DNA of 64,000 nucleotides, taken from contig JAOPTT010000008.1 of the NCBI GenBank assembly GCA_051531975.1, positions 32,001-96,000 of the forward strand, read 5' to 3'. The notes under the pieces are model-generated. The model had not been told where the DNA came from. It ran no database searches and saw only the letters and a list, made by a program, of their open reading frames with translations. The DNA comes from Spirochaetaceae bacterium (GTDB lineage Bacteria > Spirochaetota > Spirochaetia > DSM-2461). Below, one piece after another: positions 5,307 to 58,845 of this stretch; the first letter of the stretch is position 1, and every line of letters begins with the position of its first letter. The position numbers were made by a program, and so were the translations under genes.

Positions 5307-5422
5307 TTATATAAAATTTTATCGGTATAATTAGTGTCTTTTCAAAAATTATTAAAATTAAATTGAAGATTTATACCTTTACAGTTATTATAATTTACAT
5401 ATTTACTTACATAGGAATTAAA

Positions 5423-6697
5423 ATGAAAAAATATATAATACTTCTATTGTTGTCTATCTTATTTTTATCTTGTACACCAACCAAAGAAATTATTGTAACG
5501 TCTAGAGAAGACTCTATAATTATTTTTAATAATAATGAATTTGATACTAAAGCAATAATTAAAGCTAAACTCAATGAATTAATAAGCATAACCGTTAGAA
5601 AAGACGGTTATATCAGTAAAACAGAAGAATTTGAAATAACAAATGAAATTACTGAAAAATATATTAATATTATTCCTAAACCTATAACTTTAAATATTAC
5701 ATCATCTCATAAAGATTTAGATATATATATAAATAAAAAAAAATACAAAAGCAATTCTATAGAATTAGATCCAGGAAAGTATGAATTAGAAATTGAAAAA
5801 AATGGATATGAAAAATATAGAAAAATGATAGAACTCAATATTGGTGAAATTAATAGAAATATAAATGTTAAACTAGATAAAGAAAAATCTTCAGGATATA
5901 CCATCAATAGAACTAATCCAATTAAATCATTTAGTGGTGAAATTTATTTATCAGAAAAACAAAAATTGTCAAAATGGCATCAAAGAGACACTTCTATAAC
6001 AATAACCAATAATTTTTCTGAAAAGCATTTAGTATCAACAAAATGGTTTGTTCCATTAGATGATCCTGTAAAGTTTTCTAGTAAAATTCTTATGTTTTTT
6101 TCTGATACTGTTTTTTGGTATGGTACTTATCAAAATGGAGCATATATAAAAGGTAATTATGAATTAATAGAAAATAAAGTTAAATTGTATAATATCGTAG
6201 ATGTTATCGATGAAGATGGTTGGCGATTGGAAGATATTTTTTATAATAATGAAGAGATTTATTTAGATATAAACAAAACACCATCTTATAACTACTCTAT
6301 AACCCTTGAAAATGAATTAGGTTTACTTCAGTTCGCAGCTGATGGTACAGAGCCTTTAATAAATGAAAAAATAAATATATGGGGTTTTAATTCTATATTT
6401 GAAAATAAAGCTGGAATAATATCAGCCGAAACACCTGTCTTTTTATCACCTGAAACAAAAGCTACTAATATATATATAGAAGAATTTGGATCTTTACAAC
6501 TTGTGAAAGATGAACAAGGAAATGACGAACATAAATTCATTGAGAGTAAAATAATTTTAAATAAAGATATAGAAATTCAAATTTTAGCAAAATCAGAATT
6601 GTACGATTCATATTTTTGTAGAGTTCCAGTAAAAGATGAATATTATAGATGGGCTAATGCTTGGATTTCTAGTAACAATGTCAAAATAATTAAATAG
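5423..6697 (+). CDS. PEGA-domain lipoprotein (cassette 4)
   Basis: Start moved to ATG 5423 (AGGA upstream); lipobox LFLSC; PEGA-like segments (ITVRKDGY; LDPGKYELEIEKNGYE). Confidence 0.8.
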   Translation: MKKYIILLLLSILFLSCTPTKEIIVTSREDSIIIFNNNEFDTKAIIKAKLNELISITVRKDGYISKTEEFEITNEITEKYINIIPKPITLNITSSHKDLDIYINKKKYKSNSIELDPGKYELEIEKNGYEKYRKMIELNIGEINRNINVKLDKEKSSGYTINRTNPIKSFSGEIYLSEKQKLSKWHQRDTSITITNNFSEKHLVSTKWFVPLDDPVKFSSKILMFFSDTVFWYGTYQNGAYIKGNYELIENKVKLYNIVDVIDEDGWRLEDIFYNNEEIYLDINKTPSYNYSITLENELGLLQFAADGTEPLINEKINIWGFNSIFENKAGIISAETPVFLSPETKATNIYIEEFGSLQLVKDEQGNDEHKFIESKIILNKDIEIQILAKSELYDSYFCRVPVKDEYYRWANAWISSNNVKIIK

Positions 6698-6720
6698 AAA
6701 TCAAACACATTCGATATAAA

Positions 6721-6831
6721 ATATAACAAAGAAATTGGAAAAGAAAAGTTATTGTCACAGTCTATGCATGAAAAATACAAAGACTGCGCCAACCCTGCGG
6801 GTCAAACTTTCTTCTCTATTCGACGTTAAAT
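6721..6831 (+). repeat. attC site 4
   Basis: ATATAAC...GTTAAAT; R'' is complementary to the GTTATAT that opens cassette 4. Confidence 0.9.
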
Positions 6832-6881
6832 TCACAAAAATTTATTTTACAAAAGAAGTTATATCAATTACTCTAAGGTTT

Positions 6882-8342
6882 ATGAAAAAAACAACTTTAT
6901 GTGTCATCATTATATTAATTGTATCTTGTCAAAAAACACTAGATATTGAAACAGAACCAAGTGGAGCAAAAATTTACTATAACGGTATCGAATTCAATTC
7001 ACCTGCTGAACTAGAGTATTCTGGAAATTCAAACCTACTTATTAAAAAAGAATTTTATAAAGATATTAAATATACTGCTGAAGAAACAAAATTACTATTA
7101 ACAAATAAAAATAACATAAAACTTACACCCAAATTATATTTATTAAAAATTACTAATAGAAATGAGTTAATGGATATAACAATAAATGGAGAGAAAGCTA
7201 AGTATAGAATTGAGCTACCTCATGGTGAACATCAGATTGAAATTAAAAGAGAAGGATATTTTACTTTTAAGCAAACAATATCTATCCCGGATACTAATGA
7301 ATTAAATCCTCAACTAATTGAAATATATATATTAAAAGAAATACCAAAAGGTATTTCTGATATAAAAATAAATAATGACAAAATATATTTAAATACTGAA
7401 TTCTATATACTAAATAACACCAATAGATTTGAACCAGGATATATACCTACAAAAATTTCATTTAAATATAATGATCTATTAATTGATACAACATTACATA
7501 ATATGTATATAAAGAATAGAGTATTAAATCTACAATTAATATTAGATGAATTCATTAATGAAGATAAAAACAAACCAAAGGTCATTATTGAAAGTGATTG
7601 GATTAAAGAATTTGAGTCGCCATTTCATCTAAAAAAGCTATTTTCAGGACCGACTGGATTTGAAAATATGCCAGATGTACTTATAAAAGGTGATAATAAA
7701 ATTATACAAAAGCCCTTAAATTTATTTCCTCATTTGTCTATAGCAAACCCAACTTCAGCAGTAATAGGAGCATATTTTATAGCTAAATCTGGAGATTTTG
7801 AAAAGAAATATGAAATTACATCAGAATTTTATAATTCAAATATAGACGAAATGTATGCGGGTGAAGAATATAATCCTGATGGTATTTATACAAAACAAAA
7901 ATTCCTTAAAATAGATAACCTTGACTTAGATGCACCTTTTAATAATGCTGAAATTGAATGTTATTTATATATAAATAATATAGTAACTGATAGTGTCAAA
8001 TTAAAGGTAAATAAAGATGTATATAATAAATTTGGTGATACATCTTATGGAGTATATTCCGATTTAAGGGAATCAATATTTTATCAATCAAAAAATCCAT
8101 CGAAAATACATTATCTTTATTCTGATGAATCTAGGTCAGGAGAATTTTTAATAATATATATGTCAAAAAACAGAGAATACATACCAATATACACTTATAA
8201 AATAGGAGATGTTTCTTCAACACCAGCTAAGATATTATTAGAAGAAAATGATTCCAATAATTATTTTATTCTAATTACTAAAGATTTATCAAATATTGAG
8301 AATTGGTATGCTAGACAATTTAAATATTTTACTGACAAGTAA
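6882..8342 (+). CDS. PEGA-domain lipoprotein (cassette 5)
   Basis: Start moved to ATG 6882 because the track start lies inside attC4; lipobox LIVSC; IETEPSGAKIYYNG and LPHGEHQIEIKREGY are PEGA-like. Confidence 0.82.
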   Translation: MKKTTLCVIIILIVSCQKTLDIETEPSGAKIYYNGIEFNSPAELEYSGNSNLLIKKEFYKDIKYTAEETKLLLTNKNNIKLTPKLYLLKITNRNELMDITINGEKAKYRIELPHGEHQIEIKREGYFTFKQTISIPDTNELNPQLIEIYILKEIPKGISDIKINNDKIYLNTEFYILNNTNRFEPGYIPTKISFKYNDLLIDTTLHNMYIKNRVLNLQLILDEFINEDKNKPKVIIESDWIKEFESPFHLKKLFSGPTGFENMPDVLIKGDNKIIQKPLNLFPHLSIANPTSAVIGAYFIAKSGDFEKKYEITSEFYNSNIDEMYAGEEYNPDGIYTKQKFLKIDNLDLDAPFNNAEIECYLYINNIVTDSVKLKVNKDVYNKFGDTSYGVYSDLRESIFYQSKNPSKIHYLYSDESRSGEFLIIYMSKNREYIPIYTYKIGDVSSTPAKILLEENDSNNYFILITKDLSNIENWYARQFKYFTDK

Positions 8343-13904: not shown

Positions 13905-14743
13905 CAATAATTAAATCTAACTCTTCAAAATACAGTATTAGCGCCATGTGTAAATTATTAAATATAAATTGAAGTCTTTTATATTACTCAAAGACTTCCA
14001 GGGTTGTTCCTTCAGAAATAGATGATGAAGTTATTATAATTTTTAAGAAGAGTAGAAATAACTATGGAGCACGTAAAATTAAAATAGAGCTTGATAAAAC
14101 ACAATATAAAGCTTCTAGGAGGAAAATACGGCGTATAATGGACAAATATGGCTTAGTTTCAAGCTATACTGTTAAGCAGTTTAAGGTCGTTAAGTCTAAA
14201 TGTAATAATGAAAAAATTGATAATATTGTAGATCGAGACTTTAATCGTGATAAACAGCTAGATGTTGTTGTAAGTGATCTTACATATGTTAATGTAGCAG
14301 GAAAGTGGAATTCTATATGTATAATATTAGATCTCTTTAACAGAGAGATAATTGGATATTCAGCAGGTAAGAAGAGAGATGCTTTTTTGGTATATCAAGC
14401 TTTTACAAAAATAAAAAAGCCATTAGATCAGTTCAATATTTTCCATACAGATAGAGGTAATGAGTTTAAGAATAAAGTTATAGATGATCTTTTAGAGACA
14501 TTTGATGTAACAAGGTCTTTAAGTAGAATGGGATCTCCACATGATAATGCTGTGGCAGAAGCTACATTTAAAGTTATTAAAACAGAGTTTGTTTATCAAA
14601 ATAAATTTGAAAGTCTTGATGAATTGAAACTGGAGTTATTTGATTATGTTAATTGGTATAATAATTGTAGAATTCATGGTTCGTTAGATTATTTAACACC
14701 AGTTGAATATAGATTGAGGGTGTCCGATAAAAAACTGTCTTAA
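13898..14743 (+). pseudogene. IS3 transposase OrfB (DDE), interrupted by a nonsense codon
   Basis: The -1 frame is open from the orfA end to TGA at 13970-13972, then continues in frame through SDLTYV, HTDRGNEF and DNAVAE. Confidence 0.85.
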
Positions 14744-30390: not shown

Positions 30391-32160
30391 ATGAAACGTT
30401 TTAAGCTGATACTTTTTTTTACATTATTTATATTGTTACTAATATCAACAGGATATTTTGCATTAGAAAAAATTAAAAATGAAACTAAAATAAATATTAG
30501 AAGTTCTTTAATAACTGTTTTAGCAACTACTCACGAATCTATCTATATTTGGTTAGATTATAGAACTAAAGATATCGAAGAAATTGTATCTAATAAAAAA
30601 ATTAAAGCTATAACTTCTGAATTATTAAAGCTAGAGGATTATAGTAAATTACACTCTAACCCATCGATTATAGAACTTAGAGAACATATGAGACCTATAT
30701 TAGAAAAAAATAGTGATTTAGGTATTTTCATTATATCTCCAGATAACATAAGTATAGCCTCTATGCGGGATTCTAATCTGGGGTTAAAAAATATAATATC
30801 TACAGATAGACCAAATATACTAAAAGATGTATTTAAGGGAGAGACAAAACTTGTCCCAACAATTCAGTCTGATGTTGTATTAAACTCTGAAATAAACACT
30901 GATTTTAAAAAATCTACTCCAACAATATTTATTGCAACTCCAATAATAATAGACAATAAGATTGTAGCAGCTTTTACTCTCAGACTTGATCCTGCAAAAG
31001 CATTTACTAAAATTATTAGTTTAGGAAATATTGGTAGGTCAGGAGAAACTTACGCCTTTGATAATAATGCAACACTAATAACAGATATAAGATTTCCATC
31101 AGCACTTAGAAGCAAAGGTTTATTAAAACCAAATGAAAAAGCAATTCTTAATATGAGAATACTTGATCCTGGAGTAAATCTAATTAGAGATTCAGAAAGC
31201 TATCCTACACTTGATGACAAGAATCTTACTGTAATGGCCAAATCTGCAACTTCAGGTAAATCCGAAGTAAATATTGAAGGATATAATGATTATAGAGGTG
31301 TCCCAGTTTATGGTGCTTGGTTATGGGATGAAAACTTAGGTATTGGTATAACTACAGAGATAGATATAGATGAAGCTATGAAACCCTATCAGGTAACTAA
31401 GAAGGTATTAATTTCAGTGTTAATATCTATAGGAATAATTACAATTATATTTTTCATTTATCTTATTTATATGCAAAGATATAATGAAAGATCATTAAGA
31501 ATATTAAATAATAAGCTAGAAGAAAAGGTAAAAGTTAGAACTTTAGATTTAGAAGAAGCAAAATCTGAATTGTTGAATTTAAATAGAGAACTTCAAAATA
31601 TTGCTACTACTGATGCACTAACAGGTTTAGCTAATAGGCGTAATTTTGATAGTTTTTCTCATAATGAGTGGAACAGATGTTTAAGAAATAAAACTTATAT
31701 GACTTTAGCTATTTTAGATATAGATTTTTTTAAAAAATTGAATGATACATATGGGCATCAGTTTGGAGATGAATGTCTTAAAAGACTTGGGTTTTTATTA
31801 AAGAATAATAGATTTGTTTCTAGACCAGGGGATTTAATTGCTAGATATGGAGGGGAAGAATTTGTATTTGTATTTTCTGGGACTACAAAAGAAGATGCTT
31901 ATATAATTCTAAAAAAAGTGATAGATTCCATAAAAATAGAGGCTATACCCCACAAGACATCAGAAGTGTTAAATAGTGATATTATGACAGTTAGTATAGG
32001 ATATTATAGTGAAGTTCCAAATGATAAAGTTAGTTTAGATGAATTAATTTCTAGAGCTGATGAATCACTATATATAGCAAAAAAGAATGGTCGAAATAGA
32101 ATTGAATATTATTGTGATCATAAAAAATGTTCTGATTGTACTGGTTGTTCTAAATATTAA
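30391..32160 (+). CDS. Membrane sensor (Cache-like) diguanylate cyclase
   Basis: Two TM helices; DALTGLANRR, DIDFFK, RPGD I-site, RYGGEEF; Cys-rich tail. Confidence 0.92.
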   Translation: MKRFKLILFFTLFILLLISTGYFALEKIKNETKINIRSSLITVLATTHESIYIWLDYRTKDIEEIVSNKKIKAITSELLKLEDYSKLHSNPSIIELREHMRPILEKNSDLGIFIISPDNISIASMRDSNLGLKNIISTDRPNILKDVFKGETKLVPTIQSDVVLNSEINTDFKKSTPTIFIATPIIIDNKIVAAFTLRLDPAKAFTKIISLGNIGRSGETYAFDNNATLITDIRFPSALRSKGLLKPNEKAILNMRILDPGVNLIRDSESYPTLDDKNLTVMAKSATSGKSEVNIEGYNDYRGVPVYGAWLWDENLGIGITTEIDIDEAMKPYQVTKKVLISVLISIGIITIIFFIYLIYMQRYNERSLRILNNKLEEKVKVRTLDLEEAKSELLNLNRELQNIATTDALTGLANRRNFDSFSHNEWNRCLRNKTYMTLAILDIDFFKKLNDTYGHQFGDECLKRLGFLLKNNRFVSRPGDLIARYGGEEFVFVFSGTTKEDAYIILKKVIDSIKIEAIPHKTSEVLNSDIMTVSIGYYSEVPNDKVSLDELISRADESLYIAKKNGRNRIEYYCDHKKCSDCTGCSKY

Positions 32161-34106: not shown

Positions 34107-34133
34107 CCAACTTTTTATTATTATATGTGTCTA
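34107..34133 (+). promoter_or_regulatory. Candidate ECF-sigma autoregulatory promoter
   Basis: CCAAC-N17-GTCTA directly upstream of the ECF gene, matching the common AAC/GTC ECF promoter pattern. Confidence 0.5.
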
Positions 34134-34151
34134 TTAGTGTAGAGAGGATTT

Positions 34152-35315
34152 ATGGATAAAAAGATTTTAATAGATGCAATACATGGCAATAGTAAATCAC
34201 TAGAAAAAATTATATCCCAAAACCAAACACGTATTTATGCTTTTGTTAAAAGTAAAGTTAATAATTCTATGGATGTAGATGAAATAGTGCAAGAAACTTT
34301 TATAAATTGCTTAATAAATATTGGGAAACTTCAAAAAATTGAAACCTTTGATTCTTGGTTATTTAAACTTTGCCATAACAAAATTAAAAACTATTATAGG
34401 GATAAAAGAGAAGATGTTGAGTTTAATGAAAATGTAAATATAACTAATGAAATTAAAAATGAGTGGAATAATTATACAGACTTATTAAAAGTTTCAATTT
34501 CCACTTTATCTAGAAATCAAAGAGATGTTTTGCAACTATATTACTTTTCAGGACATAGTTATCTAGAAATATCTAAAATTTGCAATATAAGTTTAATAAA
34601 AGTTAAAAGCAGACTCTATGAAGCAAAACAGATCCTAAAATCTAAAATACCTCATCTTTATCACGGAGTTGAGCTAACAAAAAGCTTAATGAATACAGAA
34701 AAGGAGTTAATTATGAAAGAGTTAGAATTAATAAAGATAGCATCAAGTGTAATAAGATCACTTTCTTTAAAAGATCAGATGGAACTATGTTTAAATATTT
34801 CCAATAGTGAAAAAATCTCAGGGAAACTATTAGAAAATATAAGTGAAATTGAATTTGGTAAAGATTTTTTAAAAGGATATAATTCAAGACTGACTGTACG
34901 CGATCTATCTAAAATTATAACTTACGATAAAGTATTGGATAAGTGGTTAATAAATAATCTTGAAAAAATAGAACCACAAATTACAGAAGAATTCAAAAAA
35001 AATATATTTGTATTTGAGGATATAGTATTATTGCCTCCAAGTTCTGTTGAGTTAGTACTAAAAAACATAAAATATGAGACTATAATTACCGCTATATCAT
35101 CTACCGAAAAAGTCGTAAAACAATATATACTTAGTTTCTTTGATAATGAAGAAAAAGAGCAAATACTTAATTTATTTTTAGATATTAGTAGTCTAGATAC
35201 AGATATAAATAGAGCTCAATTTAGTATCGTTGAAAGGATACGGGAACTACATGACGATAGAATAATCTCATTCTCATTTGATGTTAAAGAAAACTTACGA
35301 AAACAAGGTTTATAA
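34152..35315 (+). CDS. ECF sigma-70 factor with C-terminal FliG_C-like domain
   Basis: Region 2 (DEIVQETF, FDSWLFKL) and region 4 (LSRNQRDVLQLYYFSGHSYLEIS...VKSRLYEAK); C-terminus EEFKKNIFVFEDI...AQFSIVERIRELHDDRII. Confidence 0.85.
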   Translation: MDKKILIDAIHGNSKSLEKIISQNQTRIYAFVKSKVNNSMDVDEIVQETFINCLINIGKLQKIETFDSWLFKLCHNKIKNYYRDKREDVEFNENVNITNEIKNEWNNYTDLLKVSISTLSRNQRDVLQLYYFSGHSYLEISKICNISLIKVKSRLYEAKQILKSKIPHLYHGVELTKSLMNTEKELIMKELELIKIASSVIRSLSLKDQMELCLNISNSEKISGKLLENISEIEFGKDFLKGYNSRLTVRDLSKIITYDKVLDKWLINNLEKIEPQITEEFKKNIFVFEDIVLLPPSSVELVLKNIKYETIITAISSTEKVVKQYILSFFDNEEKEQILNLFLDISSLDTDINRAQFSIVERIRELHDDRIISFSFDVKENLRKQGL

Positions 35316-35499: not shown

Positions 35500-36753
35500 A
35501 TGAGGATGCAAATAATTATGAATAAGAGCAATATGAAAAAAATCATTGATGAATTATTACTATATTCTGGTCAATTTGGGTTATTTTATATCATTATGCA
35601 AATTATAAAATCAAAATCAATTTTTATAAATGATATTGGACATTTAGGATTATTGTTATCATTGATTTTACAAGTTTTTTTATTGGCTTACTTTGGTCAC
35701 AAAGTTAAATATCGTCTATTATTTTCTTTTATAGTTCCAGTTATTTATAGCTTATTAGAAGTGAGAGAGGGAATTGATTATTTACTAAATACTGCACATA
35801 TTGGATTCTGGATATATGCTGTAATTTCTGCAAGTTTAATGTCAATAAAAATTCATAGTAATACAATTTTTAATAAATCAATTGAAGTCATTTTTGTAGT
35901 TCTCAACGTATTTATATTTTTGTTTATCTACTTTTACTTTGATACCTGGAAAGAAGTAATTACACCTGAAAAATTAATAATAACAGAAATTTTTAAATAC
36001 TTAGATACATTTTTACAAGACCCAACCCACTGGTTTATCATTTTTGGTGGAACATTACTCGCTTTTACTATTGCTTTAGGTCGATATGAAATTGAAAAAC
36101 TTAAAGAAAGAATTACTTCCCTATTTGGACAATATGTAGATAAAAATATAAGGGATACAATTATTAATAAAGGTGAATATATCGCAAAAAAAGACAAGTT
36201 ATGTATCATGTTCGCTGATATCAAAGATTTTACAAAGTTATGTGAAGAAAATGATGCTGAAAGTATAAGTAAAATGTTAAATATATACTTTGATTACTGG
36301 AATAGTATAGTTAAGAGACATAATGGAACTATTGATAAATATATAGGAGATGCTATCATGGTTATTTTTGGACTTCAGAGTGTAAAGGATCCATGTAATT
36401 CTGCAGCAGAATGTTCATTAGAAATAATTAAAAACAAGATGATCCTTGAGGATGAATTAAATAGAAAATCATTACCACTGCCTACAGACTTTGGTATTGG
36501 TTGCCATTTTGGAGAATTAATAATTGGAGATTTAGGAAGTAGTGATAGAAAGAATTTTACAGTTATTGGAGACACTGTAAATATTGCATCTAGACTTGAG
36601 TCTATTACAAGAAATGTACATAGCGATTTGATACTATCAAATACTATGTACACCCACTTAAAAGATTCTCTAAAATCTAAATTTTATAATCTTGGAGAAT
36701 TCGAACTTAAAGGTAAGAGTTCTCTAGTAAAAGTTTGGGGTAATAAAGTCTAA
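35500..36753 (+). CDS. Membrane-bound class III adenylate/guanylate cyclase
   Basis: Multi-TM N-terminus; FADIKDFT, DKYIGDAIM, TVIGDTVNIASRLE, ELKGK. Confidence 0.92.
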   Translation: MRMQIIMNKSNMKKIIDELLLYSGQFGLFYIIMQIIKSKSIFINDIGHLGLLLSLILQVFLLAYFGHKVKYRLLFSFIVPVIYSLLEVREGIDYLLNTAHIGFWIYAVISASLMSIKIHSNTIFNKSIEVIFVVLNVFIFLFIYFYFDTWKEVITPEKLIITEIFKYLDTFLQDPTHWFIIFGGTLLAFTIALGRYEIEKLKERITSLFGQYVDKNIRDTIINKGEYIAKKDKLCIMFADIKDFTKLCEENDAESISKMLNIYFDYWNSIVKRHNGTIDKYIGDAIMVIFGLQSVKDPCNSAAECSLEIIKNKMILEDELNRKSLPLPTDFGIGCHFGELIIGDLGSSDRKNFTVIGDTVNIASRLESITRNVHSDLILSNTMYTHLKDSLKSKFYNLGEFELKGKSSLVKVWGNKV

Positions 36754-37681: not shown

Positions 37682-38554
37682 CTAGTTTAATAAATTAACC
37701 AGATCAACACGGCTATTTACCTCTGTTTTTTTATAGATGTTATATATATGATTTTTTACAGTACTAGTGGAAATTTTAAGGTCAAAAGCTATCTCTTTAT
37801 TACTGTGACCCCTAAGAATCGCTGTACTTATCTCTACTTCCCTAGTTGTAAGATTCCACTTTGAAATATATTCATCTAATATAATTGTGTTATTTTGAGG
37901 TCTCTTTATTTTAGCTTTTATTTGGGACATATTCAGTAAATTCCAGCAAATAAATATAATTGGAATATTAACTGTATAATCTCCAAGAAATCCAAAATAA
38001 TATTTTAAAGACATTTCTAATGCTATTATAGCCAGTGTAAAAAGTAGAAAGAAATACCAGAGTCTATTTTCATTACTGCTTTTATTCTCTTCTGATTTAG
38101 AATTCCTATGAGCAAACCAGATAGATATTAAAATAAAAGATGGAACAGCAATAATAATAGGGTAAAAAGAAAATGTAGTTTGCCACAATATTAGTTGCAA
38201 CATTGCTATAACAACAAATAATAGGGGTATAACAGACCATAAAATCTTAGTACTTTTAGTAATACCTTTTTTATCTACTATAAAACTAAGTCGTGATATT
38301 GACCTTGCTAATATACCTTGCCCTAAAATAATAACTGCAATAAAAACTGAAGAAACAAAGGTAGACTTAATAACATTAACCTTTAAATATAATACAATTA
38401 ATGCTGATAACATTAAAAAAGTATAAGAGAGATGAACTCCAATGTAACCCTTCATAAAATCAGAATTATTACCATATTTCATAATAAGATAGATAGCTGA
38501 CACTATGCCACTAATTCCAGATAAAAGATAAAGTAATAATATAATATGAGTCAT
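37682..38554 (-). CDS. Membrane-anchored LuxR-type regulator
   Basis: Multi-TM N-terminus; LTTREVEI...GHSNKEIA...STVKNHIYNIYKK HTH; start moved to avoid overlap with the divergent gene. Confidence 0.88.
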   Translation of the reverse strand: MTHIILLLYLLSGISGIVSAIYLIMKYGNNSDFMKGYIGVHLSYTFLMLSALIVLYLKVNVIKSTFVSSVFIAVIILGQGILARSISRLSFIVDKKGITKSTKILWSVIPLLFVVIAMLQLILWQTTFSFYPIIIAVPSFILISIWFAHRNSKSEENKSSNENRLWYFFLLFTLAIIALEMSLKYYFGFLGDYTVNIPIIFICWNLLNMSQIKAKIKRPQNNTIILDEYISKWNLTTREVEISTAILRGHSNKEIAFDLKISTSTVKNHIYNIYKKTEVNSRVDLVNLLN

Positions 38555-38615
38555 GTTTTGATTATAGCATTGGAATATAATTAGAACTATACTAATTGTA
38601 TTGGGGTTAAAAAAT

Positions 38616-39152
38616 ATGGTTAAAATCGAAATCAATTCAACCACACCTATTAATAATTTAAAAGATATAGACTCAGTTGAACACTCAGTAATAAATGCTG
38701 AAGGTATTACACTTATAACCTTTTTCAGATTTTCTACATGCCCTTTTTGTAATCTACGGCTACGTGCATTAAATAGCTTTATAGAACCCTATGGTTCAAA
38801 GATTAAAGTAATCGCTGTCTTTGGCTCTCCTGAAGCTGAAGTAAGGAAAGCTAAAGAACTTCACCATCCATCATTTCCGCTAGTAAGTAATGCTGATCGA
38901 TCACTATATAAAATATTTTCTGTAACTAAGTCATGGCTTGGTGTTATTAAAGGTATGATATTTAGATTTCCATCATTAATTAAAGGAATGGTACTACAGG
39001 GCAAAATCCCTTTAAATTTTGATGGTATGTTAAATACTATGCCGGCTAGTTTCATAATAGATAAAAACGGTATTATAATTGAAGTTTACTATGGAAAAGA
39101 TGAAGGTGATCATATTAGCTTTAAAAGGATTACAGAAATAATAAACAAATAA
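38616..39152 (+). CDS. AhpC/TSA (peroxiredoxin-like) redoxin
   Basis: FFRFSTCPFCNL; PASFIIDKNG. Confidence 0.85.
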   Translation: MVKIEINSTTPINNLKDIDSVEHSVINAEGITLITFFRFSTCPFCNLRLRALNSFIEPYGSKIKVIAVFGSPEAEVRKAKELHHPSFPLVSNADRSLYKIFSVTKSWLGVIKGMIFRFPSLIKGMVLQGKIPLNFDGMLNTMPASFIIDKNGIIIEVYYGKDEGDHISFKRITEIINK

Positions 39153-39166
39153 CTAGAATATCCAAA

Positions 39167-40339
39167 CTAAAGCCCGTTTTGCTTCTTCTTATTTTTGTTT
39201 TTATACATATCAATATCAGCAATTTTAATTAAATCCTCGGCGTTTAAGATATTATGATCTTTAAGTTGTGCATAACCAAAACTAATTGAATGTTTTATTT
39301 GTCCATTATTTATAGAGGTAACATTTTCTGAGATTCTTTCCAGTATTAACTTTGCTACAGAAATATCGCCATTGATGATTAGTACAAATTCATCACCACC
39401 ATATCTAAAAGCTGCTTCACTATGTCGTAATCCACTTTTAATTGCTTGTGCTATTGATTTAATATACTCATCACCAATTTTGTGTCCAAGTTTATCATTG
39501 ATGTGTTTTAGTCCATCTGCATCAATAAAAGATATAGTTAGTGGATCATTTGTTCTTTTAGATTTTTCGAACTCTTTAGACAATAACAGTATCCCAACTC
39601 TTTTATTGTAAAGGCCTGTCATCTCATCATATGAAGCTAACATATCCAAATAATGCTCATTATCTTTTATTTCCTGAAATGTTTTTTTCATCTCTTTCTC
39701 AACGGGAACAAAAATGAAAAGTGCTTCAAATAAAAGCAGGCAAAATGTTATTAAAAGAAGAATTATTTCAAGTTGTTTAATTTTTTTGAGTTTGTTTGTA
39801 GCTTCAAAATCATATTGAAATACTATGTCATTCATCCCTTGTAAGAAGATCGATTCCTGTTCTAAAATATTAGTTAAGAATTCATTAATATTTGTATCGT
39901 TATTATGATAGGATTCAATAATTAAATTAGTATTAATTATTATTATATTATATGGGTCTTTGATTTCCGAAAACATTTGAATAACTATTGGACTATTATT
40001 AGCTTCTATGCCTAATAGAACTGATCCTTCTTTTAAAGCTTTGTCCGAGGTTCTCCACAATTCTAATGTATTAGTAAGTTCAATAATATATTTTGCCTTG
40101 ATAAAGTTATCAGAATTGTTAGATAATGCTAATGCTGACTTCGTAATTTTTTGGCTTAACATTCTTTGCCTACCTGCTATATTTATAACTCTAGCAGAAT
40201 CTGTATTTTCATCCAGAGCGACCTGGATTAAAACTTGGCTTATTATAATTAATAATGCAATTAGACCTAAAGCTGTGGCATATCTTTTTCTTAATAGAGA
40301 TGGAGTAAACTTATAATTACTATTAATTATTTTCATCAA
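39167..40339 (-). CDS. Diguanylate cyclase with PilJ/NarX-like sensor domain
   Basis: INIAGRQRMLSQKI sensor motif between TM helices; DEMTGLYN, RYGGDEF. Confidence 0.9.
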   Translation of the reverse strand: MMKIINSNYKFTPSLLRKRYATALGLIALLIIISQVLIQVALDENTDSARVINIAGRQRMLSQKITKSALALSNNSDNFIKAKYIIELTNTLELWRTSDKALKEGSVLLGIEANNSPIVIQMFSEIKDPYNIIIINTNLIIESYHNNDTNINEFLTNILEQESIFLQGMNDIVFQYDFEATNKLKKIKQLEIILLLITFCLLLFEALFIFVPVEKEMKKTFQEIKDNEHYLDMLASYDEMTGLYNKRVGILLLSKEFEKSKRTNDPLTISFIDADGLKHINDKLGHKIGDEYIKSIAQAIKSGLRHSEAAFRYGGDEFVLIINGDISVAKLILERISENVTSINNGQIKHSISFGYAQLKDHNILNAEDLIKIADIDMYKNKNKKKQNGL

Positions 40340-40386: not shown

Positions 40387-41784
40387 TTAAAACAATTTTA
40401 TTAGATATACATTCAGTTTGTTATCTTTACCTTTAACACTAATCTCTATTGGTTCATTAAAAGATATTTTATCTTTTAATTCATCATATATATTATCTTT
40501 TACTAAAACTTCACCTTTGCCAGCTGCACTGCAAATTCTAGCTGCGGTATTAACATTGTCACCAATAACTGTAAAATCAGCTCTATCTTGGGAACCTAAC
40601 ATTCCTAAAATAACATCTCCCCGATTTATACCTATACCAACCATTAAATTCCCATACTCTTTTTTAGATTTAAGTTTTAATTCTTTTTGGATTTTAATTG
40701 CAGCATTACAAGCTCTTTCTTCCTGATTTTCACCGGTGAATATTGCCATAATTTCATCTCCGACATATTTATCAATATCACCACCTTCACTTTTTATTAT
40801 TTGAGTCTGAAAATTTAATATTTTGTTTAAATCCCTAACAACTTCCCTTGGAGTATGTTTTTCAGAATATGAAGTAAAACCTCTTATATCACTAAAAAAG
40901 AGGGTTAAATTTACCTGTTCACCATCATCATTAGAACCAGATAGGGATTTAATTGTAGATTCCGAAACATATTTCGAAAGTTCAAATCTCTCCATAAGTC
41001 CCTCAGACATTTTATTAACAGTATTCCCTAAATCTCCAATTTCATCATTACTATTTATTTTTACTCTATTTGAAAAAACTCCTTTTGTTACAGAGTTACA
41101 AACTTCACCAATTCTTTTTATAGGATTTAATACACTTTTATGAATAAAGGTTGTTAATATTAATAACAGTGCCAAAACTATAATTGGAAATATAATTACC
41201 GATGTTATAATTCCAGTTTTTTTCTCATTTTCTGATTCTGTAATATTATTAGTAATTTCAATTACACCCCTAATAATATGATCTGAGCCGTGGCACTTTG
41301 CGCAACTAGCTAGGTTTCTAAGTGGTCTATATACTTTTACAAATGATTCATTTTCTACTTTAAAATCCATGAAACTTATATGGGTTGGTAGATCATCCCT
41401 CATAACTCCAGAGGTATAAATATCATCACGCTCCTTAAATACTTCTTTTTTGAGATTTTTATTAACCTGCATTATTGTTTTATTATCCGTAAAAGCATAG
41501 GTTCCATCACTTCGGTATAGTTTTATTGTAAAGTATGGGTTTGCTTCCTCTAGATCACTTAATAATTTCACAGCTAAAGGAGCTTGACCTGGTAACATAA
41601 AGTTTTTTATAGATGTATGCAGAATTTCAGACTGTTGCTCTATATTCTTTTTAGTGTCCATATCGATGGTAGTATATAAAGATCTAAAGAGTATAAATAT
41701 AACAATCCCTACGCCGAGGATAAGAGTTACTGAAATAATTGTATTAATTTTTTTTGATATAGGTTTATATTTTGATTTTTTCAA
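40387..41784 (-). CDS. HAMP-containing class III adenylate/guanylate cyclase with periplasmic CxxCH
   Basis: CAKCH between two TM helices; HAMP (DEIGDLG); FSDIRGFT, DKYVGDEIM, GDNVNTAAR. Confidence 0.9.
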   Translation of the reverse strand: MKKSKYKPISKKINTIISVTLILGVGIVIFILFRSLYTTIDMDTKKNIEQQSEILHTSIKNFMLPGQAPLAVKLLSDLEEANPYFTIKLYRSDGTYAFTDNKTIMQVNKNLKKEVFKERDDIYTSGVMRDDLPTHISFMDFKVENESFVKVYRPLRNLASCAKCHGSDHIIRGVIEITNNITESENEKKTGIITSVIIFPIIVLALLLILTTFIHKSVLNPIKRIGEVCNSVTKGVFSNRVKINSNDEIGDLGNTVNKMSEGLMERFELSKYVSESTIKSLSGSNDDGEQVNLTLFFSDIRGFTSYSEKHTPREVVRDLNKILNFQTQIIKSEGGDIDKYVGDEIMAIFTGENQEERACNAAIKIQKELKLKSKKEYGNLMVGIGINRGDVILGMLGSQDRADFTVIGDNVNTAARICSAAGKGEVLVKDNIYDELKDKISFNEPIEISVKGKDNKLNVYLIKLF

Positions 41785-49631: not shown

Positions 49632-50177
49632 TCACCACCAAATACTATATTCACAACCACAATATTTTTGTCTATATAGGCCTAACTCTTTTGATAGATC
49701 GGTACTAACTTTAAAACCATTTTCTTTACAAAAATCGATCATTAAAAACTCTACACCGTACTGTTTAGCCACATCTTGGCCAATCTCCATTATTGCTTTT
49801 GAGTTCTTATGTGGACTAATGGATAAAGTAGATGTAAAAAAGTCCATATTAAGCTCTTTTGCTTTTTTAGCAGCTGTAATAAAGCTAAATCTGAAACATT
49901 TTAAACATCTAGCACCTTTTTCAGGTTCAGCTTCTAAACCTTTTATGTAATCTGACCACTTTTTATGGTCGTACTTTTCTTTAATTATACTGTCTTTATA
50001 ATAATCTGAAACTGTAACTGCAGCCTCAAATCTTTTTTCAAACTCTTCTTCAGAGTTCATATTAGAATTAGAAAAATATAGAATTATATCATAATCATCA
50101 ATCCTTGGGATAGAACCTACAGCACAAGGGCCACAACATACATGTAATAATAATTTCTTTTTTTCACTTGTTATCAT
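49632..50177 (-). CDS. queH: Epoxyqueuosine reductase QueH
   Basis: LLHVCCGPC, EPEKGARCLKC, ISPHK, LYRQKYCGC. Confidence 0.92.
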   Translation of the reverse strand: MITSEKKKLLLHVCCGPCAVGSIPRIDDYDIILYFSNSNMNSEEEFEKRFEAAVTVSDYYKDSIIKEKYDHKKWSDYIKGLEAEPEKGARCLKCFRFSFITAAKKAKELNMDFFTSTLSISPHKNSKAIMEIGQDVAKQYGVEFLMIDFCKENGFKVSTDLSKELGLYRQKYCGCEYSIWW

Positions 50178-50761
50178 TTTAATATTTTAATCCCTAATAT
50201 TGAGACATCATCACTATCTTTTGCATATTTATTTAAAATATTTTCAGCTACATCTTTTATAGGATCAAATTTAAGATTTGCTATCTCCGAAAAGTCAAAA
50301 CTTTCTTTTACCCCATCTGAATATGATATAATTAAGTCACCTTCTTTTATTTTATGTTCCCAGATTTTTATTGTTGGTAATCTACAACCTAAAACACCAT
50401 CTTTTGATATTAAAGTACTGTTTTTATCACTTATAATCCGGGTTGTGATATTACCCACTCCTGAATATGTTAATAGACCTGTTTCTTTATTTAAGATACA
50501 AATATCAATAACAATTCCCCTACTCTTTAATAGAACATTATGTAATGATTTTAGTACTCCTGTCAGATCTGTTAATTGGGCTTTATCCAAATAATCTGTT
50601 GCGATTATAGCTGCATCATACGCTTTTTCTCCATGGCCTAAACCATCAATAACGGCAAAAAACAGATGTGAATCCGTCTCTTTTAAAAATACTTGATCCC
50701 CACTTACCATGGAAGATTTCTCATATGGAATTATTCTATAATATGATTCTACTCTTAACAT
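50174..50761 (-). CDS. RsbX-like PP2C/SpoIIE phosphatase
   Basis: SGD...IDGLGHG...GVGNI...SDG...DDVS. Confidence 0.85.
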   Translation of the reverse strand: MLRVESYYRIIPYEKSSMVSGDQVFLKETDSHLFFAVIDGLGHGEKAYDAAIIATDYLDKAQLTDLTGVLKSLHNVLLKSRGIVIDICILNKETGLLTYSGVGNITTRIISDKNSTLISKDGVLGCRLPTIKIWEHKIKEGDLIISYSDGVKESFDFSEIANLKFDPIKDVAENILNKYAKDSDDVSILGIKILK

Positions 50762-50762
50762 T

Positions 50763-51161
50763 CTATAACCATTTCCCTACAATTATTGTGGTCCCTATTC
50801 CAACTTTAGATTCAATACTAAAATCGTCCATAATTCTCTTAACACTAGATAGACCAAGCCCTAAACTATTTTTAGTTGTACTATAACCATCTTCCATAAC
50901 TATATCTACATTTCTAATCCCTGGACCAGTATCTTTTGCAATTATTTTAATTCCACTAACTTTGTCTTTAAATGAATTACTTAAATTTATAGTTCCACTT
51001 TTTGTATATCGAATTATATTTGTTGCTAATTCGGATACAGCTGTTGCTATTAACACAGCTGTAACTCCACTAAATCCAAGCTTTTCAGCATAAATTCTAG
51101 TTTCTAAAATAATCTGATATACATTATCAGTTTTTTCAATATTGAAGACTATATCTGGCAT
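50763..51161 (-). CDS. rsbT: RsbT-like Ser/Thr kinase / anti-sigma regulator
   Basis: ATAVSELATNI, DTGPGI, DGYST..SLGLGL...MDDF...GTTI. Confidence 0.88.
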   Translation of the reverse strand: MPDIVFNIEKTDNVYQIILETRIYAEKLGFSGVTAVLIATAVSELATNIIRYTKSGTINLSNSFKDKVSGIKIIAKDTGPGIRNVDIVMEDGYSTTKNSLGLGLSSVKRIMDDFSIESKVGIGTTIIVGKWL

Positions 51162-51176
51162 GTATATCTGTCCAAC

Positions 51177-51977
51177 TTACATATCAATTACTTTTAAGTT
51201 TACAAGACTAAAACCTTGAGCTAAAGCATCACTTAAAGTTGATTTAGTAATTATCCCATCCATTTCAACACCTAGTTGAACAATAGTTTGGGCTACCGCA
51301 GGGGAAATTCCTGATATAATACATGTACAACCCATTAATTGTGTAGCTTTAGTTATTTTAATCAGATGATTAGCAACCGCTGTATCTACAGCTAATACTC
51401 CAGAAATATCTAAAATTATTACTTTTGCCGAAGTAGTCACTATTTTTTCAAGCATTTTTTCCATCATGTGTTGTGCTCTATTAGAGTCAATTATTCCAAT
51501 GATAGGTAAGATAACAATACCATCCCATAATTTTATTGTTGGAGTTGATATTTCCTGAATAGTTTTTGATTGTTCTTTAAGTTTATCTTCATGTTTAATC
51601 TGATCTGTAATATCTAAAATATACTCTAAACCACCTATAATTTCACCACTGTCATCTTTTAATGGAACTGCAAAATATTCTATTGGAACCTTTTGACCAT
51701 CTAGAGTAATTTCATTTCTTGCAGTACATTTTTCACCTGTATTTATGGCCATTTTCATTCGGCAATCAGGAGTATTACAATGCCTTGAACAAAATAGATC
51801 TGCGCATATTTCTCCTGTTACTGTATCCATGTCTTTACCAAGCATAGTTAAAGCTGCTTGGTTCATGTAAAAAACTTCTAATTCCCTAGTTACTGCCATT
51901 ACAGGTGTAGGTATTTGATCTAATATTTGTGTCGATAATTTATCACTCATTGTTTTTAATTCTTTTTTAGTTTTCAT
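51177..51977 (-). CDS. RsbR-like PAS-STAS protein
   Basis: N-terminal PAS; ISTP...LPIIGIIDSNRA...LDISGV..VDTAVA...SGISPAVAQTIV STAS. Confidence 0.9.
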   Translation of the reverse strand: MKTKKELKTMSDKLSTQILDQIPTPVMAVTRELEVFYMNQAALTMLGKDMDTVTGEICADLFCSRHCNTPDCRMKMAINTGEKCTARNEITLDGQKVPIEYFAVPLKDDSGEIIGGLEYILDITDQIKHEDKLKEQSKTIQEISTPTIKLWDGIVILPIIGIIDSNRAQHMMEKMLEKIVTTSAKVIILDISGVLAVDTAVANHLIKITKATQLMGCTCIISGISPAVAQTIVQLGVEMDGIITKSTLSDALAQGFSLVNLKVIDM

Positions 51978-57681: not shown

Positions 57682-58845
57682 GTGATAAAAACGCCAATTG
57701 GCCAATTAAAAATAGATCATTATTATAATGTTGACCTATATCTAGATAAAAACTTTCTCCTTTTACCTGTAGATATTCAATATACAAAAGATATTGCAGA
57801 CAATCTAAAAAGATGGAGTATAACACATATATTATCTAACGATGAACTTCAAGAAATTGCAGAAGAGGATCGTGTAGCACCTTTATCATCAACATCATCT
57901 ATTACAGCAGGGGTTGAAGAACATCAAGGAAAACAACATGCAGAAGAGTTCTACATGAAATGTTTAGAATTTGTAAATGTTCTATTTAAAGATTTTAAAA
58001 ACAATGAAAAACTTAATCTTAATAATGTAAGTGACAAAATTAAAGAGATTATTAAAGAAGTAAAAGAACACCCTCTTTATATATTAAGATTTGCAAGTCT
58101 TCCAAGTTTTGAACATGATTATATGGTTACACACGCTACAAAAACTACAATGTTAAGTATTGCTATTGGTGATAAATTAAAACTCCCACAACATAAACTT
58201 GTAGAACTTGGAATATCATGTCTATTCCATGAGATAGGTTTATTAAAATTACCAGAAAGATTATATAATGGTGCGGGAAAAATTACAGATGAGGAAAAAC
58301 AAGCCTTATCAACACACACAATACTGAGTTTTAGAATTTTAAAACAATTAAATGTATCAAGAGATGTATTATTAGGTGTTTTAGAACACCATGAAAGAGA
58401 AAATGCCTCAGGTTATCCTCAGAAACTTCCAGGTGAAAAGATTTCTCTATTTGGTAAAATAATTTCTATAGCTTGTTCATTCGATGCACAAATATCTGAT
58501 AGACCATTTAGAAATGGAAAAGATGCACACTCAAGTTTATTAAACATGATGCAGCAGATTGGAACTTTATATAACGATAAACTGATAAAAGGCTTAGTTG
58601 GCCTTTTAACAATATACCCTCTTGGATGTTATATTCAGATGGAAAATGGCTCAATTGCTAGATCCATTGGTTATAACCCAGAAAATCCAACTTTTCCTAT
58701 TATGCAACAAATAACCACGACTTCGGATAGTATTCTTGCCGAAAGACCTATTATCAATCTTTCTGAAGAGAATAGTTCTCTAGTCAAAAAAGTACTTTCT
58801 ATAGCTGAAGCTAGGATGTTTGAGGAAAAACATAAAGTCAGTTGA
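57682..58845 (+). CDS. HD-GYP domain protein (variant motifs)
   Basis: HHERENASGYP, FDA..SDRPFR, YPLG; the HD doublet reads HE. Confidence 0.88.
   Translation: MIKTPIGQLKIDHYYNVDLYLDKNFLLLPVDIQYTKDIADNLKRWSITHILSNDELQEIAEEDRVAPLSSTSSITAGVEEHQGKQHAEEFYMKCLEFVNVLFKDFKNNEKLNLNNVSDKIKEIIKEVKEHPLYILRFASLPSFEHDYMVTHATKTTMLSIAIGDKLKLPQHKLVELGISCLFHEIGLLKLPERLYNGAGKITDEEKQALSTHTILSFRILKQLNVSRDVLLGVLEHHERENASGYPQKLPGEKISLFGKIISIACSFDAQISDRPFRNGKDAHSSLLNMMQQIGTLYNDKLIKGLVGLLTIYPLGCYIQMENGSIARSIGYNPENPTFPIMQQITTTSDSILAERPIINLSEENSSLVKKVLSIAEARMFEEKHKVS

Follow-up and report, generated by a model that had tools for sequence, protein, structure and literature searches.

The 64,000-nucleotide (nt) stretch analyzed here, which we call the window (Spirochaetaceae bacterium assembly GCA_051531975.1, contig JAOPTT010000008.1, positions 32,001 to 96,000), carries a gene for a 387-residue protein that joins a sigma factor of the extracytoplasmic function (ECF) type to a homolog of the middle and C-terminal parts of the flagellar rotor protein FliG. 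The gene, at 34152..35315 (+), is the sole long open reading frame (ORF) of an interval that a first-pass annotation had flagged as 34107..35315 and described as an ECF sigma factor with a FliG C-terminal-like domain. The fusion itself is upheld, with all three domains above their Pfam cut-offs, both of the peptides quoted at the time are present in the translation and the end coordinate is right. The start is not: a promoter-like CCAAC begins at 34107, and the in-frame TAG that follows before the ATG at 34152 puts this position outside the gene. The features of the locus are as follows.

34107..34134 (+): predicted ECF-type promoter, -35 CCAAC at 34107-34111, 17-nt spacer, -10 GTCTAT at 34129-34134
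34142..34148 (+): Shine-Dalgarno-like GAGAGGA of the main start, 3 nt 5' of the ATG at 34152
34152..35315 (+): ECF sigma / FliG-like fusion gene, 387 amino acids (aa), ATG start, stop codon included
34212..34409 (+): sigma region 2, residues 21-86 (Pfam Sigma70_r2)
34497..34631 (+): sigma region 4, residues 116-160 (Pfam Sigma70_r4_2)
34701..34715 (+): candidate second translation start, internal AAGGAG at 34701-34706 (K184-E185), 6-nt spacer, ATG of M188 at 34713-34715
34704..35003 (+): FliG-derived adaptor, residues 185-284 (C-terminal half of FliG_M, helix MC and ARM_C-like helices)
35004..35024 (+): IFVFEDI, counterpart of the FliG MFxF hinge, residues 285-291
35025..35267 (+): FliG C-alpha1-6-like six-helix subdomain, residues 292-372 (Pfam FliG_C and fold match), without the torque-helix charges

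Architecture and fold of the fusion protein

By domain content, the protein is a group-4 (ECF) sigma factor, with both region 2 (E = 4.8e-11, 42.7 bits against a cut-off of 24) and region 4 (8.3e-11, 41.8 bits against 25.7) above the family thresholds. The ECF-wide NCBIfam model TIGR02937 (sigma70-ECF) covers the N-terminal half at 82.8 bits (cut-off 42.9), and all 24 named ECF equivalog models listed (SigZ, SigY, SigM, SigW, RpoE and others) stay under their own cut-offs, the best of them being SigZ TIGR02959 with 79.9 bits against 168.65. Neither region 1.1 nor region 3 was found in a Pfam scan at E up to 1, which gives r2, r4, r4_2 and FliG_C only; the gap of ~30 residues between regions 2 and 4 is poorly conserved and modeled at low confidence. 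FliG_C, a family check that the first-pass annotation had proposed, matches residues 269-372 (8.2e-12, 45.8 bits against 23.3). An MgtE_N-like magnesium sensor was also considered for the extension and ruled out, with no MgtE_N match at E up to 1 in Pfam.

The FliG-derived part exceeds the Pfam FliG_C span and comprises the C-terminal half of FliG_M, helix MC, ARM_C, the MFxF hinge and C-alpha1-6. Aligned by BLASTP with a true FliG, residues 197-368 correspond to FliG 145-321 (27% identity, E 5e-11), and the family profile matches the FliG chain 1lkv_X at 1.3e-24, with the 1lkv and 4fhr matches beginning at profile position ~201. A fold comparison, likewise suggested at first pass, gives a similar extent. 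We made two AlphaFold models, from 12 and 43 input sequences (predicted local distance difference test, pLDDT, 84.2 and 86.1; predicted template modeling score, pTM, 0.66 and 0.70), and from residue 192 on both match FliG middle/C-terminal structures at Z of about 15-15.8. Across the two models Z is 15.6-15.8 for 4fhr_B, 15.1-15.3 for 3ajc (root-mean-square deviation, rmsd, 4.5 over 159) and 15.0-15.3 for 1lkv (rmsd 2.4 over 130). The terminal six-helix subdomain falls on 1qc7_A (Z 14.9, rmsd 2.3 over 96) and 8ucs_H (Z 12.4, rmsd 1.7 over 87). At the other end of the protein, sigma-E/SigW region 2 fits the modeled region 2 with an rmsd of 2.1-2.9 over 87-90 residues in both models, and -35-binding domains such as 2h27_D fit region 4 at 1.8-2.1 over 67-69 residues.

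Homology and fold with FliG (1lkv, 3ajc, 4fhr, 1qc7) thus run from the second half of FliG_M to C-alpha1-6, whereas several motor features are missing, as an alignment of the module with the host genome's two real FliGs and one other FliG makes clear. The hinge likeness (MFxFEDI) claimed earlier is real: the protein has IFVFEDI at this place, with F286, F288 and D290 each retained by no fewer than 93% of the 43 aligned family members. The N-terminal FliF-binding domain is absent (no FliG_N match in Pfam, residues 1-170 being sigma domains), the module has no GG for the Gly-Gly linker, and of the EHPQR motif only E185 aligns with EHPQ, in the stretch ahead of residue ~192, which is aligned with less certainty. 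Nor are the Arg and Asp-Asp of the torque helix (E. coli numbering) kept. The aligned positions read N/E and L/N (E333, N340/L341) and vary freely over the 43 members (for example E18/A10/D4), in an alignment possibly off by 1-2 residues, in agreement with the first-pass view that the torque-helix charges are gone. The module therefore appears to have shed FliF binding, the EHPQR FliM site and the torque charges, and it further differs from FliG in lying outside a flagellar operon and in being fused to a sigma factor.

The host genome has two ordinary FliG genes elsewhere, of 341 aa and 373 aa, the former between fliF-like and fliH-like ORFs on contig C17 (loci, genomes, contigs and proteins are cited by our L, G, C and P handles). 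Another kind of FliG fusion exists in a related genome, where L129 724..2586 (+) (G031:C95) encodes a 620-aa protein with a FliM-like N-terminus, judged by eye, followed by a FliG middle domain that keeps EHPQ and then FliG_C, a natural FliM-FliG fusion. P0125 likewise has FliM, FliG_M and FliG_C by Pfam, and frames of 612-618 aa that match the FliG_C part occur in the window's own taxonomic family (G010:C2, G014:C147, G005:C40 and G018:C139), with none in the host genome.

A rare family with exchangeable ends and two conserved signals

A word-indexed search returned 12 proteins of the same architecture, and an exhaustive profile search of 1.84 billion cluster representatives gave 37 full-length members (366-414 aa) among the best 150, plus fragments. 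In the architecture survey that the first-pass annotation had also called for, all 43 aligned members have r2, r4_2 and FliG_C by Pfam, and none matches the MotA family. The sigma-FliG_C family is rare and patchy. A match was found in 3 of the 41 closest genomes and in none of three same-genus genomes (96, 81 and 71% complete). With four candidates scored per genome, the class sample had matches in 9 of 401 genomes (0/37 in the host's own family) and the phylum sample in 2 of 401, the host included. A metagenome scan with P0004 found three loci, all matching the sigma part only, and a search of the ESM Atlas gave plain ECF clusters only. The sequencing run from which the window's DNA comes bears the label marine metagenome.

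Conservation, measured as the mean top-residue frequency in the 43-member alignment, is uneven along the protein. It is highest in the hinge (0.77); the two halves of the adaptor (0.49 and 0.52) are level with sigma2 (0.47) and sigma4 (0.50), and C-alpha1-6 is the lowest of the folded parts (0.37).

Relatives of this family show that its last subdomain can be exchanged. In the same profile search, variant proteins match over the sigma and adaptor parts as far as profile position 260-303 and carry other sequence beyond it. We scanned 27 hits with Pfam and sorted them by their C-terminal ends:

STAS + SpoIIE: 4/27
STAS alone: 2/27
Glyoxalase / bleomycin-resistance type (VOC): 8/27
Cyclic nucleoside monophosphate (cNMP)-binding: 1/27
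No extra Pfam family: 4/27
FliG_C only, short proteins: 5/27
True multi-domain FliG relatives: 3/27

The variants retain the sigma part together with the FliG-like adaptor and diverge at the MFxF hinge or shortly ahead of it; the STAS and cNMP forms part from the FliG_C type at the MFxF position itself. A quick tree of the sigma and adaptor parts (71 rows, LG+G4, support from the Shimodaira-Hasegawa-like approximate likelihood ratio test only) separates the whole group from four plain ECFs (97) and places the variants among, or as sister to, the FliG_C type, with a STAS/PP2C clade (91) nested among FliG_C-type rows and the glyoxalase-type proteins in one clade (100). Two rows labeled plain ECF fall inside the family and are probably fragments. 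The FliG_C form would most simply be the ancestral one, because the adaptor common to all forms is itself FliG-derived. Two short motifs are commoner in the FliG_C type: the W of E-W-x-x-Y in the sigma2-sigma4 linker occurs in 23 of 43 FliG_C-type members versus 2 of 22 variants, and the P of I-P-x-L-Y-x-G after sigma4 in 25 of 43 versus 3 of 22.

The predicted promoter is shared by distant members. The first-pass annotation had pointed to an ECF-type AAC-N17-GTC element, which is indeed found at 34109..34131. Of nine distinct loci whose 5' end is intact, eight have CCAAC-N17-[G/A]TC at about 39-48 nt from the start codon on its upstream side. The eight are the five initial genes, in which the AAC stands 39-47 nt ahead of the start, plus L133, L135 and L139; L136 and L138 duplicate L004 and L005 and were counted once, and L137, a 265-aa open frame without an N-terminus or the motif, was left out of the nine. 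Mere kinship does not explain the retention, because the proteins share just 24-44% identity. In the host genome, the gene's own site scores 20.7 bits with a position weight matrix (PWM) versus 14.3 for the next intergenic site, and it is the sole strong one before an ORF. Such a promoter is consistent with autoregulation. No wider regulon was found, because counts at other spacer lengths are equal: the strict motif has 15 matches in the host genome versus 11-40 at other spacer lengths, and PWM scores of at least 14 bits are reached twice versus 1-3 times in spacer-shift controls. Motif counts in four other genomes equal those of reversed-pattern controls, and among 30 loci examined out of the 44 matches the well-placed intergenic sites are those of three sigma genes plus L102 and L116.

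A second conserved signal lies inside the gene, where the boundary between sigma4 and the FliG-like part reads AAG GAG TTA ATT ATG. All 10 lineages compared, the window included, have a Shine-Dalgarno (SD)-like element and an in-frame ATG or GTG at this boundary, at protein identities of 24-44% (one pair, 82%). The elements, with spacer lengths in nt, are:

L096: AAGGAG-6-ATG
L098: AAGGAGG-5-ATG
L005: GAGGAG-6-ATG
L097: AAGGAG-9-ATG
L133: AAGGAG-9-ATG
L139: AAGGAG-6-ATG
L137: GGAGGAG-6-ATG
L134: GGGAGG-5-ATG
L004 / L135: GGAGGA-7-GTG

AAGGAG is unique in the window's gene, which otherwise prefers AAA over AAG (38 versus 4) and GAA over GAG (26 versus 9). Five AT-rich genes use the rare pair AAG + GAG here, with chances of 0.024, 0.043, 0.014, 0.037 and 0.045 from each gene's own codon counts. 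Across the host genome an SD-like pentamer stands at -16..-4 of 0.86% of 25,797 internal in-frame ATGs, compared with 25% of naive ORF starts, and Lys-Glu is written AAG GAG in 2.5% of 7,462 pairs. Residue 184 may be K, E, W or M, its codon always ending in G; E185 is retained by 41 of the 43 members, and so is M188. The site precedes the onset of FliG homology by 4-13 residues. Some database proteins start exactly at the conserved internal Met, and a search for stand-alone FliG-like proteins gave a single short relative from a long contig (41,971 bp), P0056, which has 208 aa, is 69% identical to residues 188-387 and begins 8 residues before that Met. In P0056 the module may be encoded by a gene of its own, as a natural split form. 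We take the boundary signal to have been the start of a once separate downstream gene and to have been kept under selection, and the module is probably also translated alone, as M188-L387 (200 aa).

One genome, G592, carries both kinds of protein: a FliG_C-type member (L133 = G592:C340) and a variant paralog (L139 = G592:C193), a 688-aa open frame whose match to the family profile ends at position 303. Both genes have the CCAAC-N17-[G/A]TC motif and an internal AAGGAG-ATG, and because the two signals are common to both, the paralogs could cross-activate.

A possible self-activating sigma factor with a built-in regulator

We propose that the product of the gene is an ECF sigma factor that activates itself and has in its FliG-derived module a cognate, built-in regulator, which is probably also translated separately, a reading that we regard as modestly probable. 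The sigma factor would recognize promoters of the TCCAAC-N17-RTCTAT type, its own included, and so would activate itself, and the fused ~200-aa FliG middle/C-terminal module would have replaced a separate anti-sigma factor. The ARM-like adaptor (residues 185-284) would hold or position sigma2 and sigma4, and the MFxF-type hinge would relay the state of the terminal six-helix subdomain. That subdomain would be the input end, the place where relatives have cNMP-binding, STAS(-PP2C) or glyoxalase-type sensors. The cell would make both the fusion and a free copy of the module, the latter able to act in trans. We infer the role of the module as a regulator, the direction of control, the separate product and the input signal.

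A built-in regulator fits because the adaptor is as conserved as the sigma domains, because classical input domains take the place of the last subdomain in sister clades, because the promoter is conserved and because a ribosome-binding site and a start codon inside the gene point to a module that was, or still is, a partner protein of its own. It also fits because there is no adjacent anti-sigma gene. Pfam finds no anti-sigma domain among the neighboring ORFs in five loci scanned, the window included, and the two intergenic stretches flanking the window's gene hold no ORF of at least 60 aa, so the absence reported at first pass is confirmed. The models may lend this reading weak additional favor, since in both of them the arrangement of sigma2 and sigma4 resembles forms bound to an anti-sigma factor (rmsd 10-14 A) more than forms bound to RNA polymerase (~25 A). 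Several observations weigh against it. The promoter of L134 deviates (CCGGAC-N17-TACTAT), and target promoters beyond the gene's own were found neither in the host genome nor in the four others. Four of the five ~200-aa proteins that start at or near the internal Met come from contigs of 876-2,492 bp and may be fragments. Finally, E185 and M188 could be conserved for structural reasons, or the SD-like sequence could be a translational pause site.

The last point leads to a narrower alternative, somewhat doubtful in our judgment, in which the internal SD/ATG is not a start at all but a by-product of selection on [K/E]-E-x-I-M or a ribosome pause that aids domain-by-domain folding, and only the full-length fusion is made. 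The protein-level retention of E185 and M188 and the short contigs (<2.5 kb) of four of the five putative stand-alone proteins count in its favor. It accounts less readily for the choice of the rare codons AAG and GAG by each of the five AT-rich genes, for a residue 184 that changes while the G completing GGAG stays, for the lineage in which Val is written GTG, a usable start, behind GGAGGA, and for a site placed 4-13 residues ahead of the FliG homology.

The first-pass annotation had offered two roles for the module, a built-in regulator or a dock for FliG-like partners that might link motor status to transcription. The regulator half fits the conservation, the swaps, the promoter, the context and the internal start; the docking half is not supported. 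In that account, which we consider quite improbable, the module would bind the C-ring (FliG/FliM) or the stator, and the sigma factor would be sequestered or released by motor assembly or load, much as the export of FlgM signals that the hook is complete. True homology links the module to the FliG middle and C-terminal parts, with ARM_M-like and ARM_C-like helices and the MFxF hinge, the elements that mediate FliG-FliG stacking in the ring, and canonical FliG is present in all three host genomes checked (the window's own, with two copies, G031 and G038). Yet the FliF-binding N-domain and the Gly-Gly linker are gone, EHPQR is down to a single E, the places of the torque-helix Arg and Asp-Asp either lack charge or vary, no flagellar gene adjoins the sigma gene in the five loci scanned, and sister clades put small-molecule or partner-switching sensor domains in place of the terminal subdomain. 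Moreover, C-alpha1-6 is the least conserved folded part, which is unexpected of a surface that meets highly conserved motor proteins. A more elaborate idea, and a long shot, is that free and fused copies of the module associate head-to-tail as FliG does in the rotor, perhaps together with real FliG, so that the occupancy or conformation of the rotor is read as transcription; the retained ARM_M-like/ARM_C-like stacking helices and MFxF hinge make such an association conceivable. If true, this would be a second route from motor to gene expression, unrelated to FlgM.

The extension might instead be a positive co-factor, needed for folding of the sigma factor, RNA polymerase binding, promoter recognition or oligomerization. 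We think this unlikely, although the TPR extension of ECF42 is essential for activity and part of the ECF41 extension is required, according to the sections of PMC8999054 covered here. Conservation of the adaptor at the level of the sigma domains suits such a role, as do the linker and post-sigma4 motifs that FliG_C-type members own and variants rarely have, but the relic start at the boundary fits a former sigma/anti-sigma-like gene pair equally well or better.

Set beside known systems, the self-activating sigma factor with its own regulator has several partial counterparts. The FliA (sigma-28)/FlgM checkpoint ties a sigma factor to the flagellum, with FliA being a group-3 sigma factor that has a separate, exported anti-sigma factor. 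The likeness is limited to the concept of a sigma-flagellum link, and the family profile matches FliA chains weakly, in region 4, at E 2e-6 or weaker. In-frame internal starts yield a full-length and a C-terminal product from the genes for CheA (CheA-L/CheA-S) and IF2. The present gene resembles these in having an SD element and a start codon inside an ORF at a domain boundary, whereas the short product predicted here would be a module that regulates a sigma factor. The closest class is that of ECFs with fused C-terminal extensions, which the covered parts of PMC7826278 and PMC8999054 describe as reduced to sigma2 and sigma4 in the core, without an anti-sigma gene next to them, and as carrying a conserved C-terminal domain to which sensing or regulation is ascribed. 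Our family agrees, with an extension in 43/43 members and no neighboring anti-sigma gene in the five loci. It differs in that the extension is a FliG middle/C-terminal homolog, a type not named in the covered parts of either source, in that sister clades have different terminal subdomains, joined at a defined hinge or close to it, and in the conserved internal start signal at the fusion point.

The first-pass annotation knew of no characterized example, and we too found no paper on a sigma-FliG fusion in the literature searched. The terms 'FliG', 'PF01706' and 'MgtE' are absent from the covered parts of the main text and one supplement of the ECF reclassification paper PMC7826278, whose fuller supplement could hold a matching small group, and from the covered sections of the review PMC8999054 as well. 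What appears to be new, judging from these comparisons, is a FliG-derived extension on an ECF sigma factor; ECFs with fused regulatory domains are an already recognized class.

This class is recognized but poorly understood, most extension types being without a known mechanism in the parts of PMC8999054 considered, and the family adds an extension that comes from a rotary-motor protein. Because the FliG hinge is a well-studied conformational switch and sister clades carry cNMP, STAS-PP2C or glyoxalase-type ends behind it, the sigma-adaptor unit may be a modular one-protein signaling scaffold. The internal start signal suggests how the fusion could have arisen, by read-through of a sigma/partner gene pair, and predicts two products from one gene. 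For flagellar biology, the family would mean that the FliG middle/C-terminal module can persist in a role that needs none of the known motor contacts.

Surrounding genes

In the window, Pfam identifies the neighbors of the sigma gene as a DUF1499 protein, a GGDEF protein, a rhodanese, a DUF547 protein and a membrane class III cyclase, besides an unassigned membrane protein and a LuxR-type membrane protein. No terminator was found between the sigma gene and the downstream cyclase gene. No neighbor is common to all five loci scanned, and those of the other four are unrelated; L004 and L096 each have an AraC-type regulator close by, whereas a CsgG/LpoB-like lipoprotein is found near the sigma gene of L004 and of L097. 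PEGA-domain proteins occur directly upstream of the sigma gene in L097 (5944..6708) and, as two in tandem, 28 kb upstream of it in the window (5363..8342, +), which may be coincidence, as may the CsgG/LpoB-like lipoprotein.

Cyclic-nucleotide signaling genes are dense around the window's sigma gene (30391..32160, 35500..36753, 39167..40339, 40387..41784 and 57682..58845), comprising an HD_5 protein, two GGDEF proteins, one of which has a PilJ-type sensor, and two membrane class III cyclases, of which one has HAMP; the arrangement is not conserved at the other loci. In the left part of the window, where GC content is lower (about 24-29%), a 201-aa ORF with an integrase core (rve) at 14138..14743 (+) is probably an insertion sequence remnant. 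A partner-switching trio at 50174..51977 (-) consists of a PAS-STAS protein, a HATPase_c anti-sigma-kinase-like protein and a SpoIIE/PP2C phosphatase. The 320-aa protein at 37682..38644 (-) has a hydrophobic N-terminal part of ~250 residues, without a Pfam match and multi-pass by eye, followed by a C-terminal LuxR/GerE helix-turn-helix, and would be a membrane-bound one-component regulator.

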